From contig CP129480.1 in NCBI GenBank assembly GCA_030583885.1, positions 2,418,714 through 2,482,713 of the forward strand: 64,000 bases of DNA, in the 5' to 3' direction. Below are positions 8,541 to 17,789 of this stretch, piece after piece. Made by a program: the position numbers and the translations under genes. Each line of letters begins with the position of its first letter. Position 1 is the stretch's first letter. Origin of the DNA: Anaerolineales bacterium. Its GTDB lineage: Bacteria; Chloroflexota; Anaerolineae; Anaerolineales; Villigracilaceae. Under the pieces are notes generated by a model. That model was not told where the DNA came from, searched no databases, and saw nothing but the letters and a program-made list of their open reading frames with translations.

Positions 8541-9959
8541 TCACCCTTCGAATTTTTTGATGAACGACTCTCCTTTTGCAATAAAATCATCATGGTCATC
8601 CGGTGCTGGTGCGGACGCCATCATCTCCCGGGTTTTTTCACGAAGGACCTGACGTGCGGGCGGAGCACCTGCCTCCTGCCATTTTTCCATGCTGTAGCGC
8701 GGATACACGCCGCTGACATAATAGCCGCTTTTGTAGTTTCGCAGCGTGGATGGTTGGTTGAGAAAACTTTTACCCGGTCCCACCTTGAAGATTTCATCCA
8801 CCGCCGAGTTCATATCGTCCAGTTGAAAGCCATCGTGGATGCGGAGAGCCTGGTCAATGATCTCATGGCAGTGAACGATGGTGGTTGGCGAGATGGACTT
8901 CGAGCCAAGGGAATCTCCTATGAACGGCGCCAGATGTCCGTGTGAGAGAAGAAGCGCAAGGGTGTTCATCCAGTAGGTATCGGCGGCGATCAAATCCATG
9001 CCCCAGCCGGTCCCGCTTCCTGAAGTGGAACAATGCGGGAGGCCGTACTGCTTCATCATTTCCGAGCAGGCAACGCTGATGAGGATGCTCTGCGGGTCGT
9101 AGAAGTTGAGCATGGTGCGCATGTCGAAATACACGGGCAACATACCAAGCAGGATCGGCGCGCCTTTCTTGATGGTCTGGCTGACAACCAGCCCTGCGAG
9201 CAGTTCCGCCATGAGCAGGGTCAGTGTGCCCGCAGGCGTGAGCGGCGTGGACGCGCCAGCCATGCTGTAATTGGAAAAGATGACCGGCAATCCGCGTTCG
9301 ATGGCGACTTTCATTTTGTCCACGGTGCCGGCGTTCATAACCAGCGGGCTGACGGGATTGAAATACGGGATGACGAAGGGTTTGTCGCCGAGGGCTCTGT
9401 CGTGCAGTAACTCGAACATCTCCAGCACATCGGCGAATTTGTTTTCGTCTGAGACAAGCAGGACAAGCGGTTTGGTTGTATTGGCAATGTGTTCGAGCGA
9501 ACCATACAGGTCACCGAGTTCTTCGGAGACATCGCGTACGATACCCACGGTAGAGATGACATCGTAATATTTCAGACTCGAGCCCAAGCGGACCAGGTCG
9601 CGGAAGTTTTGGCGTTTGAAAATGTCGAGCGTTTCATCCACAGGGTTTTGATAGAACAGCGCGGTCACCCCCACCCCAAACCGCAGGCGGTCTTCGCCCA
9701 GTTTCAGCTTGTGTTCGCCGCGGCGGTCGTAGACATCGATCGTCTTCGGCGTGGACTTGATCGCCTCTTCCACAATTTCCGGCGGGAATTTGATCAGGCG
9801 GTCTTCTGCTTTCAACCCCAACTTCCATTCGAGTAAATGCAAAATCTCAGGCGAATCGACACGCACGCCTGTTTCACTCAAGACCTTCAATACATTCCGG
9901 TGTGCTTCCTGTATTTGTTCGTCATTCATTAAAGTCAATCGCGGGCGGACGTTGTTCAT
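8541..9959 (-). CDS. Trimethylamine methyltransferase (MttB/MtgB) superfamily protein, no pyrrolysine
   Basis: LKVLSETGVRV, IKFPPEIVEEAIKSTP, FNPVSPL, AGASTPLTPAGTL, SPTTIVHCHEII...GPGKSFL; GAGGAG RBS before ATG 9959. Confidence 0.85.
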   Translation of the reverse strand: MNNVRPRLTLMNDEQIQEAHRNVLKVLSETGVRVDSPEILHLLEWKLGLKAEDRLIKFPPEIVEEAIKSTPKTIDVYDRRGEHKLKLGEDRLRFGVGVTALFYQNPVDETLDIFKRQNFRDLVRLGSSLKYYDVISTVGIVRDVSEELGDLYGSLEHIANTTKPLVLLVSDENKFADVLEMFELLHDRALGDKPFVIPYFNPVSPLVMNAGTVDKMKVAIERGLPVIFSNYSMAGASTPLTPAGTLTLLMAELLAGLVVSQTIKKGAPILLGMLPVYFDMRTMLNFYDPQSILISVACSEMMKQYGLPHCSTSGSGTGWGMDLIAADTYWMNTLALLLSHGHLAPFIGDSLGSKSISPTTIVHCHEIIDQALRIHDGFQLDDMNSAVDEIFKVGPGKSFLNQPSTLRNYKSGYYVSGVYPRYSMEKWQEAGAPPARQVLREKTREMMASAPAPDDHDDFIAKGESFIKKFEG

Positions 9960-10002
9960 AAAGTCATTCTCCTCGCCTGCAATTTTATCCCATGATGTGC
10001 CT

Positions 10003-10080
10003 GTCATTGCGAGCCGACAGACGAAGCAATCTCCTACTGTTGCCTGGTCATTGCTTCACCGCGACGCGTCTCGCAATGAC
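10003..10080. repeat. REP-like palindromic element (GTCATTGCGAG...CTCGCAATGAC)
   Basis: 11-bp perfect terminal inverted repeat with inner GAAGCAAT/ATTGCTTC arms. Confidence 0.75.
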
Positions 10081-10085
10081 AGGCT

Positions 10086-11111
10086 CTACTTCTCTTTCTC
10101 CCAACGCTGACGGTCTTCCGGCTTGTCGGGGTCGAGATATTTGGGATGCACCTTCTCGAAGACACGATGCCCATGAGCCGTCCACAAATCGGCGGCGAGT
10201 TTCTTCGCATCTGTACGGATACCCTGCGCCGCAAAATACTGACAGATACGGAGCACATCGCGCTGGAAGATGCCCCACGAAGACGGATTCGACTCGGGGA
10301 TGACCACCTGCGGGAAGTCGATTAACTTGATGTCGCCGTCCCAATACAGGATGTTATACGCCGAGAGGTCGCCGTGGATGCGGTCGTTCGCAAGCATGAT
10401 ATCCATGTTGCGGACGACGCGCCCGAAGAGAGGCTGGGCTTCATCAGGGTCGAGTCCAATGTGACTGAGCGGCGGCGCGGCGGTCCCTGCATCGCCGATG
10501 AACTCCATCAGGATGGCATTCTTCTCCTTCGCGTACGGTTTGGGTACATCCGCACCCGCCGCGAACAGTTTCTCCATCGTGACGAATTCATACGCGATCC
10601 ACGAGTGATGACGGACTTCCTCGCCGTAGCGCGTGCGTTTGACGATGGCATTGATATCAGCCTCTTTCCACAGGGCAACGCCGTCTTCGTCCAGATCCGT
10701 GCGACCAACGCGGTATTGCTGGTCATTCTTGAGATTACGCAGAGAGCGCGGACGATAGACCTTGGCAGCCAGAAGCGGCGCATCCACCTCGACGCCGGGC
10801 CTGCACAGATAGACTGAAGCCTCTTTTCCTCCCTTGACGCGGCGCAGGACATCCGAAATCCACTTGTGATCATGGAATGCGGCCAGCGAATCCAACAGCC
10901 ACCACTCCTCGAAACGCGCAGCTTTGTAGGTGAATTGGAATTCCTTCGAGGCTTCCTGCGCGCGGATGAAGAGTTTCGCCTCCATTTCGCGCTTCTTTGA
11001 TTCGCGCTTCTGCGTGACGCGCCTACTGGACGGCTTGGTTCCGTCGCTGGCGAGGTCATCGAGTTCTTCATACAGTTCGTACATGTCTTGCAGATTGTTC
11101 TTTGTATTCAT
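10086..11111 (-). CDS. RIO1-family serine/threonine kinase
   Basis: VKGGKEASVYLC, AAKVYR, VPKPY...ILMEFIG, IHGDLSAYNIL, IDFPQ. Confidence 0.92.
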   Translation of the reverse strand: MNTKNNLQDMYELYEELDDLASDGTKPSSRRVTQKRESKKREMEAKLFIRAQEASKEFQFTYKAARFEEWWLLDSLAAFHDHKWISDVLRRVKGGKEASVYLCRPGVEVDAPLLAAKVYRPRSLRNLKNDQQYRVGRTDLDEDGVALWKEADINAIVKRTRYGEEVRHHSWIAYEFVTMEKLFAAGADVPKPYAKEKNAILMEFIGDAGTAAPPLSHIGLDPDEAQPLFGRVVRNMDIMLANDRIHGDLSAYNILYWDGDIKLIDFPQVVIPESNPSSWGIFQRDVLRICQYFAAQGIRTDAKKLAADLWTAHGHRVFEKVHPKYLDPDKPEDRQRWEKEK

Positions 11112-11132
11112 TGCTGTTGAGTACCTTAAAAC

Positions 11133-11160
11133 AAAAACCACAGGATACGACACCCTGCGG
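11133..11160 (-). terminator. Second leader terminator just upstream of the RIO1 kinase start
   Basis: Minus strand CCGCAGG-GTGTCGTAT-CCTGTGG followed by TTTTTG. Confidence 0.6.
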
Positions 11161-11218
11161 CTGAGTAACGCGAGATAAATCCTTCGATGAACCCAGGACA
11201 AATCTTGCGATACGGGAT

Positions 11219-11248
11219 AAAAAACCGCAGGCGGAGCACGCCTGCGGT
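11219..11248 (-). terminator. First leader terminator downstream of the leader peptide
   Basis: Minus strand ACCGCAGGCG-TGCTC-CGCCTGCGGT followed by a T run. Confidence 0.8.
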
Positions 11249-11269
11249 CGATGGGTCACTTATTGGGAA

Positions 11270-11335
11270 TTACAGCAACTCACGCACAGGAGGCGCGCTG
11301 AACGAATGGACAGTGGTTGACAAGATGGCTTGCAT
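11270..11335 (-). CDS. Putative 21-aa leader peptide MQAILSTTVHSFSAPPVRELL
   Basis: Strong SD AAAGGAGG upstream of ATG; -10-like TATCTT further upstream; followed by terminator hairpins. Confidence 0.55.
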   Translation of the reverse strand: MQAILSTTVHSFSAPPVRELL

Positions 11336-11433
11336 GTTTTCGAGCCTCCTTTCGGTGAAGTAAGATAGTGCAGGGATTTTATGCCAACAATAATTCCACG
11401 TCAAGCCCCAATTTCGCCGTACAATACTCCCTT

Positions 11434-12531
11434 CTATTTGACGTGCAAATCAAAAAACTTTTGAGTTCGCGCCATGAACACAAACCAGGGATCGCCGATG
11501 AAGGAATGTTTCTCGCCTTCATACGCGAAGAGTTCTGCATCCAGCCCAGCTTCGATGAGGGCATTATATATTTTCAATGACCAGACGGGCGGCGCACCCG
11601 AGGAGACCTTTCCATCTTCAGTGCCATACACGATCTGAACCGGTGCGGTGATATGGTCCAAATGATAGAGCGGGGAAAAAGCCCTCAGCATGACAGGATC
11701 CATTGACGCTTTAAAGTAGGCCGCGGTCAGGTCGGGGGGCAGATCCAGAGGAAGAACATCCGAGGAATTACATCCAAAGGCAAGCTCACCGGCGTAGACA
11801 TCCCCAAAACAGCCAGGGCCCCAGCGCTCGATCAGGTCGGCAAAATCACCGCTGACGGAATTATACAGGACCGCCGCCTTTACGCGGGAATCAACCGTCA
11901 GTACCTTGAGCGTCACTCCCCCTCCCATGCTGTGACCCCACATGCCGATGCGTTCGGGGTCAGCCTGCGGGATGGAGGGGATGGCGTTCAGTAAATTGAT
12001 GACGTCAATTGCGAGCCCGGAGTAAAACAGACTTTCACCCGTATCGGAGTCACCCCAACTGCGGTAATCGGAGGAGATCGTCAGATAACCACGGCGGTTA
12101 AGGAACTCAGCGGCACGATCTGTACCGTCGCCCGAAACATAGACCGTGCGCGAGAAGAAGCCGTGGTTCATAACCACAACCGGATACGGCGGCTCGCCAC
12201 TGGTGGGGATTTGTAAAATGCCGCTGATAGTCAATCCGTCGCTCGGGTATTCGATCAAATAGCGGGTGAAGTTATGTGATTCCAGAAGCGTCTCACGGAT
12301 GACGATCTCCCCGCTTTTATAATCATGTTCACGCAATCCAGCGATCGTGTAGGGCCGAATCGCATCTTCAGTGGTTCGCGTGGCAGTCGGGACCGGCGTG
12401 TATGTTGGGATCAACGTGGCAGGGATAATGGTCACATTGGGAGGCGGCAGCGTCCCTGCTGCCGGCGAGGCGGGCACGGAGGTACACGCCGCAATAAAAA
12501 CAAAAAGGAACAGGCGGAGGCACTGTTTCAT
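11434..12531 (-). CDS. Alpha/beta-hydrolase lipoprotein (S9/dienelactone hydrolase-like)
   Basis: Lipobox IAAC, NHGF, GMWGHSMGG nucleophile, VYGTED, EKHSF. Confidence 0.85.
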   Translation of the reverse strand: MKQCLRLFLFVFIAACTSVPASPAAGTLPPPNVTIIPATLIPTYTPVPTATRTTEDAIRPYTIAGLREHDYKSGEIVIRETLLESHNFTRYLIEYPSDGLTISGILQIPTSGEPPYPVVVMNHGFFSRTVYVSGDGTDRAAEFLNRRGYLTISSDYRSWGDSDTGESLFYSGLAIDVINLLNAIPSIPQADPERIGMWGHSMGGGVTLKVLTVDSRVKAAVLYNSVSGDFADLIERWGPGCFGDVYAGELAFGCNSSDVLPLDLPPDLTAAYFKASMDPVMLRAFSPLYHLDHITAPVQIVYGTEDGKVSSGAPPVWSLKIYNALIEAGLDAELFAYEGEKHSFIGDPWFVFMARTQKFFDLHVK

Positions 12532-12543
12532 GTCCTGATTGTA

Positions 12544-12774
12544 TCAACAATTTCCGTCATACTCCCGGACTTGCCCCCACAGCCCCTCCGCGGAAGCAGC
12601 CTCCGCCGTGTTCAACAAATGAATGGTGGCGGACTCGGCCACGAACGCCTCTCCGCACTGAGGACAAATCTGTGCGGGCACGTGATGCACGGTAAAGTTC
12701 ATCTCTCCACGTTCAAAAGAAATGGAGGTAAGGCCGTCCACAAGGACGGCTTGTCTGCAAATTAAACAGTTCAT
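12544..12774 (-). CDS. YgiT-type zinc-finger protein (MqsA-like N-terminal domain); start uncertain
   Basis: MNCLIC...VHHVPAQICPQCGEAF two CxxC pairs; no HTH domain. Confidence 0.75.
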   Translation of the reverse strand: MNCLICRQAVLVDGLTSISFERGEMNFTVHHVPAQICPQCGEAFVAESATIHLLNTAEAASAEGLWGQVREYDGNC

Positions 12775-12827
12775 CGGCTTATTAGGGAGGCCTTGGCGCA
12801 CTCCGGGCCCCTGGCGTTTAACAGCCA

Positions 12828-13109
12828 TCACCTGCGGCTCCGAAAATCTTTTTTCCATTTATGCGGGTCAGGTATGTAAACCGTGATGATCGTGATCACA
12901 TTCGTTTGGATATTCTCGGATGTCACGACATGAAACGGGCGTCTGCCCTGATAGCCCATTACCAAACCGCCCGGCTGCGGCATTTCGGCCGAATAATCTT
13001 CGAGCACATCCCCTGCACCCAGTGCCCTGCGCACCTTGCTGACGGAAATTTCACGTTCAAACATTCGCTGGACAGCATGGGCACGAAACAGGAGGACGGG
13101 GATTGTCAC
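12828..13109 (-). CDS. DUF4258-type protein (putative RelE-like toxin partner)
   Basis: FRAHAVQRMFEREIS...EDY...GRRPFHVV...ITVYIPDPHKW pattern; directly upstream of YgiT finger. Confidence 0.7.
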   Translation of the reverse strand: MTIPVLLFRAHAVQRMFEREISVSKVRRALGAGDVLEDYSAEMPQPGGLVMGYQGRRPFHVVTSENIQTNVITIITVYIPDPHKWKKDFRSRR

Positions 13110-15583: not shown

Positions 15584-16261
15584 TCATACCGGTATCGTAA
15601 AGAAGAACGAACTCCCGCGATCTTCCACACTCTCGAACCAGGTCTCGCCGTCGTGCAGGTCAATGATATGCTCGACGATCTTCAACCCGATGCCAAATCC
15701 AAGGCGCGGGTCGTCCTTGTCGTCCAGAATCGTCTCGAATGGCTCGAAAACCAGTTCCTGTTTTTCCTCAGGGATTCCTGCCCCCGTGTCGCTGACCTCG
15801 AACAGAATATTTTGCGACTCCCGTGTCACACGGATGGTGATCGTGCCGCCCTCGGTGAATTTGACCGCATTATGGATGTAATGCAACAACGCCTGCGAGA
15901 GCCGTTCTGCATCCGCCTCGATGGACGGCAGGTTCCCTGCAATCTCATCCTCCAAACGCAAGCCAGGCTTGCTGTCCGTCAACCGGCCGGCAATGGTCAA
16001 CACGCCATCCATCACGGCATATATATCCACTTCCTCCAGGTTTAATTCCATTCTGCCTGTCACGGCCTGGGCGTAATCATGGAAATCGTTTACCTGCACA
16101 ACCATCGGCATCAGCGCGGCAAGGATATGCTCTATGGGAGAGTCGTACCCTTCAAGTTCCTCGATTCTATACAGCTCATTGACGTTCTTCCTAATATCCC
16201 CAAGTCCGTCACGGAAGTAAGTGGACATGCGATGCAAGAATTCCTTTTGTTTTTCACCCAT
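15584..16261 (-). CDS. Histidine-kinase-like protein (HATPase_c) with degenerate dimerisation/phosphoacceptor region
   Basis: N box IHNAVKFT, G1 VSDTGAGI, F box VFEPF, G2 GFGIGL; no H-box His recognised. Confidence 0.8.
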   Translation of the reverse strand: MGEKQKEFLHRMSTYFRDGLGDIRKNVNELYRIEELEGYDSPIEHILAALMPMVVQVNDFHDYAQAVTGRMELNLEEVDIYAVMDGVLTIAGRLTDSKPGLRLEDEIAGNLPSIEADAERLSQALLHYIHNAVKFTEGGTITIRVTRESQNILFEVSDTGAGIPEEKQELVFEPFETILDDKDDPRLGFGIGLKIVEHIIDLHDGETWFESVEDRGSSFFFTIPV

Positions 16262-16298
16262 ATATGCCCATCCCTGAGATACGGTCTTGTACAACTGC

Positions 16299-17789
16299 CT
16301 ACTTTAAAGCAGGCCTTAATGACGGTAACCATAAGAGCTTGAAAACGAACCTGACAAACAAGGACAAGCTCAACACGATGGCCCAGTCAATTGCAAAGAC
16401 GCTGCGCGGAAAATTTTCAATCAGTCCAAGGGAGTAAATCGAGTACACAACGCCTGCCACCGCCAGCGAAGCAGTGGTGACCGAAACAAGAACTGGTTTT
16501 GCCGCCTGTAAAAATGTCCCCTGCAGGACTGCCGGATTAAGACTGTTAAAGTACGTGGAAAAGATCGTCCGCAGGAGAAAGGCAGACCAGAACATAATCT
16601 GCGCTGTGGACCAATATTGGTTGAACTGCCTGCCATCGCCAAAACGAAAACGGAACGTTATATAAACGGAAAGTGCAATGATGGCAAGATCAATTATAAG
16701 AAGCCGCATGCTCACGCGTTGAAGCGTTTTCCTTAACCACCGCCGCAGGGGTGAGTCAACGTAAAAATGGGAGACCAGCCCAATCGAAATTATCAATGGT
16801 AAAAACGTTACTTCAAAGACGGCACGCGGGTTCGCAAGGGATGATCCCTCCAATGCGCGCTCATACAGCCAGGCAATTGGGACGTGCAGAATGTACACTG
16901 CATAGGATATTTCCCCCAAGTTGACCAGCACAGGACGATTGAGGAAATTTGAAAGGCGCGACTTGTCCATTGCAAGGGAAACGATAATAAGAACCAAGAC
17001 GGGGGCGAGTAATCCAGCCATAGGCTGAAGGTCATGAGGCAAGGCAGGATAGTAGACCGTGCTTGCAACGGTATATGATGCGGCGAGAAAAATGCTGCCC
17101 CCCAGCACCAAAAGAATGATGACGGGCTTTATCTCCTGCTGGCGGCCCTCGCGCAGATACCAAATGCCGCCCACCACACCCATAATGAATGAATTGAGGT
17201 GAAAAATGGGAGAGTAGACGATAAAGCCGAGATGCTCCGGAATGTAGCCGATCCACAATATGTCATAAATCACCTGGCTGAAAACCCAGAGAATAACCGC
17301 AGTCCACACCAATTTCCGGGTGGATTGACGATATGCCCACAAGACGAAAAATGGAAAAATAGTGTAAAAGAAAAATTCAACCGTCAGGGACCACGACGCG
17401 TAATTAAAGGATTGAGACCAGGCGGGGAACCAGGCTTGCAGGACGAAAATATTCGCAAGAATCTTTTGAGGTTTGATCGCGAAAACACCGTCAATATAGT
17501 AATAACAGATCAGTAGAAAGGCGATGATGTAAAGGGGATAGATACGGATAAAACGAGCGCGCCAATACCCGCCGATGTCAAATTTCTCATTCGGGCGGAA
17601 ATACACCAGCGACATGACAAACCCGGAAAGCACATACAAATATCCCACACCTGTCGGCGCCGCCCGCAGCAGGGCGGAGATTGCCGGGCTGTTTACGAAG
17701 GATATATAAAAACCTGCCGTGCCGTGATAGAACAGCACCAACAGAATGATGGCAAAACGCGTAAAAGTTAATTGATCGAGCCTTTTCAT
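16299..17789 (-). CDS. Acyltransferase-3 (OafA-like) membrane O-acyltransferase with C-terminal PglF/CapD-like membrane domain
   Basis: LTFTRF, GVGYLYVLSGFV, RARFIRIYPL, WSLTVEFFFY, LGEISYAVYILH; tail with FPRSVFAIDW. Confidence 0.8.
   Translation of the reverse strand: MKRLDQLTFTRFAIILLVLFYHGTAGFYISFVNSPAISALLRAAPTGVGYLYVLSGFVMSLVYFRPNEKFDIGGYWRARFIRIYPLYIIAFLLICYYYIDGVFAIKPQKILANIFVLQAWFPAWSQSFNYASWSLTVEFFFYTIFPFFVLWAYRQSTRKLVWTAVILWVFSQVIYDILWIGYIPEHLGFIVYSPIFHLNSFIMGVVGGIWYLREGRQQEIKPVIILLVLGGSIFLAASYTVASTVYYPALPHDLQPMAGLLAPVLVLIIVSLAMDKSRLSNFLNRPVLVNLGEISYAVYILHVPIAWLYERALEGSSLANPRAVFEVTFLPLIISIGLVSHFYVDSPLRRWLRKTLQRVSMRLLIIDLAIIALSVYITFRFRFGDGRQFNQYWSTAQIMFWSAFLLRTIFSTYFNSLNPAVLQGTFLQAAKPVLVSVTTASLAVAGVVYSIYSLGLIENFPRSVFAIDWAIVLSLSLFVRFVFKLLWLPSLRPALK

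Follow-up and report, generated by a model that had tools for sequence, protein, structure and literature searches.

In Bacillus subtilis, the vmlR leader contains a short upstream open reading frame (uORF; MIN), an anti-antiterminator (stem-loop SL-1), an antiterminator, and a terminator (SL-3), and it was shown experimentally that initiating ribosomes arrested by antibiotics prevent the anti-antiterminator from forming (PMC9226507). In the same organism, translation of the BmrB leader peptide selects between a terminator and an antiterminator in front of the ABC exporter genes bmrCD (PMC4191407). The mgtCBR and mgtA leaders of Salmonella, with their short ORFs mgtP and mgtL, place consecutive Pro codons in alternative stem-loops, carry tandem attenuators, and are induced by a Pro stall (PMC3641672, PMC6460261). 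The trp and his attenuators combine a translated leader with a four-segment logic (1:2, 2:3, and 3:4). Here, we describe a leader that can be compared with each of these systems, located in front of a RIO-type kinase gene in a 64,000-nucleotide (nt) stretch of DNA (hereafter the window; contig CP129480.1, positions 2,418,714 to 2,482,713) from an Anaerolineales bacterium of the phylum Chloroflexota.

This leader is very probably a uORF-dependent attenuator that controls the RIO kinase. The full reading, in which a ribosome-dependent attenuator is comprised of an anti-antiterminator, an antiterminator, and a terminator, relays its decision to a second terminator, and is induced by early arrest of the ribosome, appears probable to a lesser degree, and its most specific part, that early arrest means ON and a ribosome at Pro-Pro means OFF, is evenly poised between being right and being wrong. 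A preliminary description of this DNA had proposed that the RIO1 kinase is induced by ribosome stalling via attenuation, with Pro-Pro as the stall. Its leader-peptide attenuator of a RIO kinase is retained here, whereas Pro-Pro as the inducing stall is not supported. The three-way switch among the Shine-Dalgarno sequence (SD) of the uORF, an anti-SD strand, and the 5′ arm of the first terminator had not been seen at that time.

Architecture of the leader and comparison with described systems

Coordinates are positions in the window, and all leader elements as well as the kinase gene lie on the minus strand. The elements are as follows.

11376..11404, minus strand: sigma-70-type promoter, with TTGACG at 11404-11399, a 17-nt spacer, and TAAAAT at 11381-11376; 10/12 consensus matches
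11352-11345, minus strand: SD of the uORF, AAAGGAGG
11341..11352, minus strand: region A, the SD plus the next three bases, AAAGGAGGCUCG; 5′ strand of the putative anti-antiterminator helix A:B
11270..11335, minus strand: uORF of 21 codons plus stop (ATG at 11335, stop ending at 11270), peptide MQAILSTTVHSFSAPPVRELL
11288..11298, minus strand: region B, the putative switch strand, GCGCGCCUCCU, comprising the last base of the Ser codon, Ala GCG, Pro CCU, and Pro CCU
11217..11249, minus strand: terminator 1 (T1), CCGCAGGCG-UGCUC-CGCCUGCGG followed by U6 (11224-11219), from the terminator scan
11247-11236, minus strand: region C, the 5′ arm of T1 and the start of its loop, CCGCAGGCGUGC
11233-11225, minus strand: region D, the 3′ arm of T1, CGCCUGCGG
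11165..11212, minus strand: inter-terminator spacer, with an imperfect hairpin of its own in minimum free energy (MFE) structures
11128..11162, minus strand: terminator 2 (T2), CCGCAGG-N9-CCUGUGG followed by U5GU4, from the terminator scan
11160-11154, minus strand: region E, the 5′ arm of T2, CCGCAGG
11144-11138, minus strand: region F, the 3′ arm of T2, CCUGUGG, with a conserved G·U
10086..11111, minus strand: RIO-type kinase/ATPase gene, the regulated gene (341 amino acids, aa; ATG at 11111), starting 22 nt after the U-run of T2

The SD, the uORF, both terminators, and the kinase ATG had been placed at these positions by the preliminary description, and each is indeed present there when the minus strand is read. 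Region B has two roles in the proposed switch: it would act as an anti-SD when paired with A and as the antiterminator strand when paired with C. The leader thus has a maintained uORF with an SD, a terminator before the gene without an intervening promoter, and an antiterminator that is exclusive with the terminator and for which the covariation is limited.

Like vmlR, this leader has three mutually exclusive structures and a uORF that must be initiated; a start-arrested ribosome is predicted to block the anti-antiterminator, so that the antiterminator forms and the terminator is bypassed, and the regulated genes would likewise belong to responses to translation inhibitors. Unlike in vmlR, the uORF's own SD supplies the 5′ strand of the anti-antiterminator, and the 3′ strand is found 13 codons into a uORF of 20-22 codons, where it is read as Ala-Pro-Pro. 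Moreover, further terminators of the same stem, a second and sometimes also a third, are linked to the first via D:E. Other differences from vmlR are the Chloroflexota host, the RIO kinase as the regulated gene, and the lack of sequence homology. As in bmrB-bmrCD, translation of a leader peptide would pick the terminator or the antiterminator, and paralogous leaders here precede ABC exporters; however, the BmrB leader peptide is much longer, and neither an SD/anti-SD helix nor a relay of identical terminators is part of that system. Short ORFs, consecutive Pro codons in alternative stem-loops, and tandem attenuators are shared with mgtP and mgtL. Whereas the Pro stall induces there, it should repress here, because the Pro codons form the antiterminator strand; they are also dispensable in 16% of leaders. 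The four-segment logic and the translated leader recall the trp and his attenuators, but no run of cognate codons is present (only two Pro codons), the gene is not biosynthetic, and the SD takes the place of the control codons as segment 1.

In a consensus scan, TTGACG-N17-TAAAAT is the sole promoter-like site on the minus strand within 9500-13000. It predicts a transcription start at ~11369 and a leader of ~260 nt between promoter and kinase. This leader folds more stably than its shuffles (z = -3.4). T1 is made up of 11 pairs (8 G-C), a loop of 5, and a T-run in the terminator scan. The hairpin CCGCAGG...CCUGYGG+U occurs at only three loci in the 4.4-Mb genome, two of them being T1 and T2, which rules out a genome-wide repeated terminator of the repetitive extragenic palindromic (REP) kind. 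No Rfam family was matched when 10900-11600 was searched with cmscan at E up to 10; the two matches returned were at chance level (13-14 bits). A long-range helix between the end of the uORF (GUUGCUGU) and the start of the kinase gene (ACAGCAAU) appears in the MFE structure and was taken as chance, as distances and sequences differ in close relatives.

Conservation of the leader and of its coding frame

In the genus Ca. Villigracilis (order Anaerolineales), RIO orthologues were found in 71/95 genomes, from which 72 RIO-gene upstream regions were taken. The leader architecture, i.e., a promoter, a strong SD, a 20-22-codon uORF, and one to three terminators, is present in 64 of these 72 regions; four of the 64 leaders precede a RIO paralogue of 33-35% identity. 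This recurrence of the arrangement in front of RIO kinase genes, in at least 64 species, argues against a chance origin, as do the stability of the fold and the rarity of the hairpin in the genome. An alignment of such regions had been suggested by the preliminary description, and it bears out a conserved uORF and conserved hairpins, with covariation that is present but thin. At the DNA level, the leader matches 18 genomes of the same genus, with a first conserved block spanning promoter to T1 and a second one spanning T2 to kinase ATG. The upstream neighbour gene varies by species while the leader stays with the kinase.

The promoter, TTGAC(A/G/T)-N17/18-TAnAAT, is kept in 63/64 leaders, 23-33 nt 5′ of the SD. 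The TATCTT at 11367-11362, previously read as the -10 box, falls within the transcribed leader, downstream of this better promoter. The stretch in which it lies, between the predicted start and the SD (11353-11370, CACUAUCUUAYUCCACG), is itself fairly conserved across the genus, and in this genome it lengthens the A:B helix (UCAC with GUGA). The consensus of the SD region ahead of the uORF is AAAGGAGGC(A/U)CG, with AAAGGAG invariant in all 64 leaders. A second hairpin with the same stem is found in 49/64 leaders, with a third one on a single occasion, and across leaders the F arm is mostly CCUGUGG and the D arm CCUGCGG. Since at most 60 nt separate the last hairpin from the kinase ATG in 40/64 leaders, there is no room for a separate kinase promoter; in the present locus, the promoter scan revealed none in the 22-nt gap between T2 and the kinase, where the preliminary description had considered that one might lie.

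The uORF is taken as a real coding frame on the following grounds. It has 20-22 codons in 64/64 leaders, without an earlier in-frame stop in any of them, and the other two frames are closed by stops in 39 and 49 of the 64. The distance from the ATG to the region B block is 30, 33, 36, or 39 nt, such that indels occur only in multiples of three. Apart from the RNA-constrained codons, the sequence of the peptide shows little conservation.

Some lineage-specific additions were also observed. A small additional hairpin with covarying stems (ACGAC-UUAA-GUCGU, AGCC-N-GGCU, and AACC-UUUA-GGUU) separates the uORF stop from T1 in several leaders (L035, L036, L041, L048, L061, L069, and others), and in other lineages the uORF stop codon itself lies in a hairpin loop (UGGCA-UAGUUU-UGCCA). 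The spacer between the terminators is not conserved in sequence between species, although a hairpin is found there in other species too (e.g., L004). In a sub-clade of ten leaders (L041, L047, L050, L054, L057, L059, L062, L065, L067, and L070), an ORF for a SnoaL/NTF2-like protein of ~115-123 aa (MKAYNNKLIVRRYFDEVLL...) is located between leader and kinase, at about 300-700 of the oriented regions.

Mutually exclusive pairings and a probable terminator relay

The strand B block (GCGCGCCUCC) has two partners, either A (the SD of the uORF, AGGAGGC..CG) or C (the inner 5′ arm of T1 and its loop, AGGCGUGC); the loop of T1 is complementary to B. In the alignment of the 64 genus leaders (A1), A:B plus T1 are 95.7% paired (94.6% for helix A:B alone and 96.6% for T1), and B:C is 93.9% paired, with a C-G to U-A replacement at one pair in two separate clades. 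Similar figures were obtained from 28 distant leaders (alignment A2, fitted to the covariance model R1 described below), in which B:C is 94.1% paired and shows G-C to A-U in four sequences. In these, the A:B pair 18:137 is C-G in 14, U-A in 7, and U-G in 4, and the T1 pair 208:241 is G-C in 17 and A-U in 10. Transcripts cut before the 3′ arm of T1 fold as A:B or B:C depending on the species, B:C being the MFE structure in several.

With regard to the terminators, the preliminary description had pointed out that the 3′ arm of T1 (CCUGCGG) is the exact complement of the 5′ arm of T2 (CCGCAGG). This is correct and looks functional: the T1 and T2 stems change together between families (CCGCAGG, CCACAGG, and CCGCGGG types), and when C is held, D:E is part of the MFE structure in 39 of the 49 two-hairpin leaders, T2 being formed in 8. 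D:E pairing is perfect, whereas E:F carries the conserved G·U. The pairing of the two arms thus appears to be a functional relay, in which a single B:C decision could disable both terminators, because the freed D pairs with E. The hairpin in the spacer would bring D and E close together in the read-through form.

Predicted effect of ribosome position

The dependence of these pairings on translation was modelled in the 64 leaders by masking a 30-nt footprint at each codon and computing pair probabilities on transcripts that end before D. With the P-site on codons 1-4, the probability of A:B is 0 and that of B:C about 1.0. With the P-site anywhere from two codons before the Ala codon to five after it, a range that includes Pro-Pro, both A:B and B:C are 0. 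In the absence of a ribosome, the values are 0.46 for A:B and 0.55 for B:C. In this model, which is thermodynamic only, the switch is predicted to be ON with codons 1-4 in the P-site and OFF with codons about 11-19.

The following scheme is proposed as the most economical one. Transcription from the strong promoter at 11404-11376 would start a leader that carries the well-initiated 21-codon uORF. In the OFF state, A:B, C:D (T1), and E:F (T2) would all be formed and transcription would end before the kinase. This state might be reached by two routes. If no ribosome is loaded, A and B are made before C, so that on kinetic grounds A:B would form first and T1 would terminate; if a ribosome is on codons about 11-19, it would cover B, and a Pro-Pro pause would prolong this. 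In the ON state, a ribosome held at the SD/start or on the first few codons would occupy A and leave B free. B would then capture C as it emerges from the polymerase, by which T1 would be blocked, and the freed D (CCUGCGG) would finally pair with E (CCGCAGG), blocking T2, whose own stem has the G·U, and allowing read-through into the RIO kinase gene. The elements, their conservation, the uORF frame, the alternative pairings, and the gene associations are observations. From the model we infer both the ribosome position that would give read-through and the natural inducer, the most likely signal being translation arrest at or just after initiation (e.g., by peptidyl-transferase inhibitors), or ribosomes far behind the polymerase, rather than a proline stall.

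Several points weigh against this scheme. The covariation consists of few events, as most pairs do not vary in A:B, in B:C, or in the outer stems of the terminators; the alignments A1 and A2 were partly fitted to the structure, and sliding B:C by two columns still gives 75-83% pairing owing to the G+C repeat. The folding model ignores sterics, polymerase pausing, and second or trailing ribosomes. Without a ribosome, the model gives A:B and B:C similar probabilities at equilibrium, and OFF in that case needs the kinetic argument that A:B comes first. B is likewise free in the model once the ribosome has reached the stop codon, and an alternative logic may hold in which completed translation gives read-through. 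Finally, the relay alone does not explain why the outer CCRCAGG stem never varies, even in ABC leaders that have a single terminator.

The proline codons and other explanations

If the proposal of the preliminary description is spelled out, ribosomes stalled at Ala-Pro-Pro, through limitation of elongation factor P (EF-P) or prolyl-tRNA or through general ribosome stress, would redirect the pairing away from T1 and T2 and so induce the kinase. The complementarity of the two terminator arms on which this proposal drew is real, and Ala-Pro-Pro stands at a fixed position in 54/64 leaders. Ribosomes are known to pause at consecutive Pro codons, mgtCBR and mgtA are under attenuation control by Pro-codon leaders (PMC3641672, PMC6460261), and EF-P affects the coupling of transcription and translation (PMC5021804). 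Nevertheless, induction by a Pro-Pro stall seems improbable from the way in which these codons are conserved and from where a ribosome stalled on them would sit.

The block encoding Ser-Ala-Pro-Pro is nearly invariant as nucleotides in A1, with G66, G68, C69, C70, and T71 fully invariant. The Ala codon is always GCG and the first Pro codon always CCU, i.e., their synonymous sites never vary. The residue preceding Ala can be S, G, C, N, D, T, or V, and the third base of its codon is C in 57/64 leaders and U in the other seven. In the ten leaders without Pro-Pro, Pro-Leu (CCU-CUN) is found in seven (six APL and one VPL) and Pro-Ser (CCU-UCU) in three. These losses span several separate lineages, and all of them are C-to-U changes that preserve a G·U pair with the GGAGG of the SD (G-U in 7 and 3 sequences at the two changed positions). 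Because the synonymous sites are frozen and the replacements keep SD pairing, the pattern indicates an RNA constraint, with the Ala-Pro-Pro codons serving as an anti-SD.

A ribosome with Pro in its P- or A-site would cover B, the only conserved strand that could sequester the 5′ arm of T1, and B:C is 0 there in 64/64 leaders. Since B lies inside the ribosome, T1 is left free to form, and a Pro-Pro stall should therefore favour termination. Nor could such a ribosome block T1 directly, because the Pro-Pro site is ~30 nt away from it, and truncated folds of the genus leaders contain no conserved alternative antiterminator downstream of the stall site. Sensing of Pro codons or of EF-P would entail that a Pro stall favours read-through, which neither the folding result nor the loss of Pro-Pro in 10/64 leaders bears out.

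Two further readings of this region were considered and rejected. Arrest peptides of the RAPP/RAGP type (ApdA, ApdP, and SecM) have a conserved Arg-Ala-Pro-Pro/Gly motif and are encoded upstream of protein-localisation genes. In the present leaders, the residue before Ala-Pro-Pro is never R, only the third base of its codon is conserved, and the downstream genes encode kinases and exporters. Pairing of the codons that follow Pro-Pro (CCUGCNGG) with CCGCAGG, in a second register, is confined to some lineages and is not general. It was also observed that the 3′ end of the 16S rRNA of the same genome (C1: about 1574300), GGUGCGCCUGGAUCACCUCCUUUCU, contains GUGCGCCU and CCUCCU, which are the two halves of strand B, a strand that reads GCGCGCCUCCU here and GUGCGCCUCCU in L075, L077, and L078. 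This likeness may be a coincidence, or strand B may be a condensed mimic of the 16S 3′ end. As a caution for annotation, an anti-SD (CCUCC) can give rise to Pro-Pro in a leader peptide as a side effect, and such a motif is not necessarily a sensor of stalling.

In a second explanation, a sequence-specific factor, either a protein or a trans-acting RNA, binds the CCRCAGG hairpins and sets termination, the uORF being accessory; the factor might be the kinase itself, which would then be autoregulated. The outer 7 bp of T1 are invariant in the 64 genus leaders and vary across the order only by G-C to A-U, including in single-terminator leaders, and the hairpin is not a genome-wide repeat. Such invariance is unusual for intrinsic terminators. 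Multi-partner pairing accounts for the constancy of the CCRCAGG outer stem only in part, and a sequence-specific factor may be involved. This explanation is nevertheless unlikely: the maintained uORF, its frame, and the A/B/C covariation are not needed by a purely protein-driven switch, no candidate binding protein is encoded beside the leaders, and the same hairpin is found before unrelated genes (ABC, MFS, and GNAT), so that autoregulation by the kinase cannot be general. Copying of helix 45 of 16S rRNA by the CCGCAGG/CCUGCGG hairpins was also examined. The hairpins resemble helix 45 of Escherichia coli, but the helix 45 of the genome itself is GGUGUACC-GGAA-GGUGCGCC, and the mimicry was rejected.

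In a third explanation, promoter, uORF, and T1 constitute a gene in its own right, which encodes either a 21-aa peptide or a small RNA that has CCUCC as its seed, and T1 and T2 merely insulate a kinase that has its own promoter. This is highly improbable. The strong promoter, SD, terminator, and conserved ORF length do lead one to expect an abundant transcript of ~150 nt, and action in trans is within the reach of attenuator RNAs and leader peptides of other bacteria (PMC7298713), but the peptide is poorly conserved, no promoter fits the gap between T2 and the ATG, the T1 loop is complementary to B, and the leader always travels with the downstream rather than the upstream gene, be it one of two RIO paralogues or of several other gene classes.

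Related leaders and their downstream genes

A covariance model (R1) was built from A1 and used to search 301 genomes of 102 genera in Anaerolineales. Relatives were detected in 68/301 genomes and 33/102 genera of the order, and no match at E <= 1e-6 was obtained among 400 genomes sampled across the phylum outside it. The genes that follow the matches encode RIO kinases of two paralogue families, DrrA-like ABC-2 ATPases, MsbA-like ABC exporters, an MFS transporter, two-domain GNAT acetyltransferases, and DUF4440/SnoaL-like proteins; in another genome (L130), a DUF4440 protein is encoded directly after the leader.

The genome studied here has a second copy of the leader outside the window (C1:2686936-2687073, minus strand; 49 bits to R1; locus L094). 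It precedes a DrrA-like ABC-2 exporter (ATPase and permease) and has a uORF encoding MAIVMSNNLFVCVPPCGLDW and a single CCGCAGG terminator. All three strands are changed together in this copy (GGAGGUA for A, GCGUACCU for B, and AGGUGCGC for C), as expected of a strand that has two partners. R1 also weakly matches a leader in front of a gene for leucyl-tRNA synthetase (L146; G330:C17, about 16212-16404); this leader has a 44-codon uORF with a Leu-rich end (ARLLLVLNIES) and may be a separate, Leu-sensing one rather than a member of the family.

In Firmicutes, antibiotic-responsive ribosome-mediated attenuators control this kind of gene set, as is the case for vmlR (PMC9226507) and bmrCD (PMC4191407). 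The leaders might tentatively be regarded as a translation-stress regulon across Anaerolineales, in which a portable relay attenuator senses ribosomes blocked at or near initiation and turns on exporters, acetyltransferases, and the two RIO paralogues, but this extension remains rather doubtful.

The RIO kinase and the meaning of its leader

The kinase protein matches Pfam RIO1 (2.7e-32, 112 bits against a cut-off of 22) and the Rio1 of A. fulgidus (1.3e-19). It shares with the archaeal and eukaryotic Rio1/Rio2 kinases (PMC5815136, PMC3358306) the RIO domain, the GKEAxVY P-loop, the HGDLSxYN catalytic loop, and IDFPQ, all of which are legible in its translation (GGKEASVY, HGDLSAYN, and IDFPQ). 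Unlike them, it is a bacterial protein with an N-terminal region of its own (FxFTYKAARFEE), and its RIO1-like NCBIfam matches fall below the equivalog cut-offs. Full-text literature searches returned nothing on the regulation or function of bacterial RIO kinases.

Downstream of the gene, between the kinase stop (10086) and an mttB-like gene (8541-10007), a palindromic element (GTCATTGCGAG...GAAGCAATC...CTCGCAATGAC) is found at 10003-10080. Its half-site has 35 copies per strand in the genome, with 7 full palindromes within 20-120 nt, and copies also occur inside the leader spacers of other species (L034, L059, and L070). It looks like a repeat family of the genus resembling REP elements or miniature inverted-repeat transposable elements (MITE).

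The leader provides a first regulatory context for bacterial RIO kinases, in a little-studied phylum and in the form of an element that is uncatalogued in Rfam. Two of its features are unusual, namely the use of the uORF's own SD as the anti-antiterminator strand and the domino-like relay by which one decision would disable two or three terminators. Both may help in annotating attenuators of phyla that have been little studied, and may also serve as a design idea. That the leader is shared by two RIO paralogues, drug exporters, and acetyltransferases leads to the testable hypothesis that the kinase is part of a response to blocked translation. If the regulon does exist, it would offer the first functional context for bacterial RIO kinases. 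This would be either a response to damaged or drug-bound ribosomes, in which the kinase acts on the small subunit like its archaeal and eukaryotic counterparts, or the phosphorylation of a small molecule such as an antibiotic.

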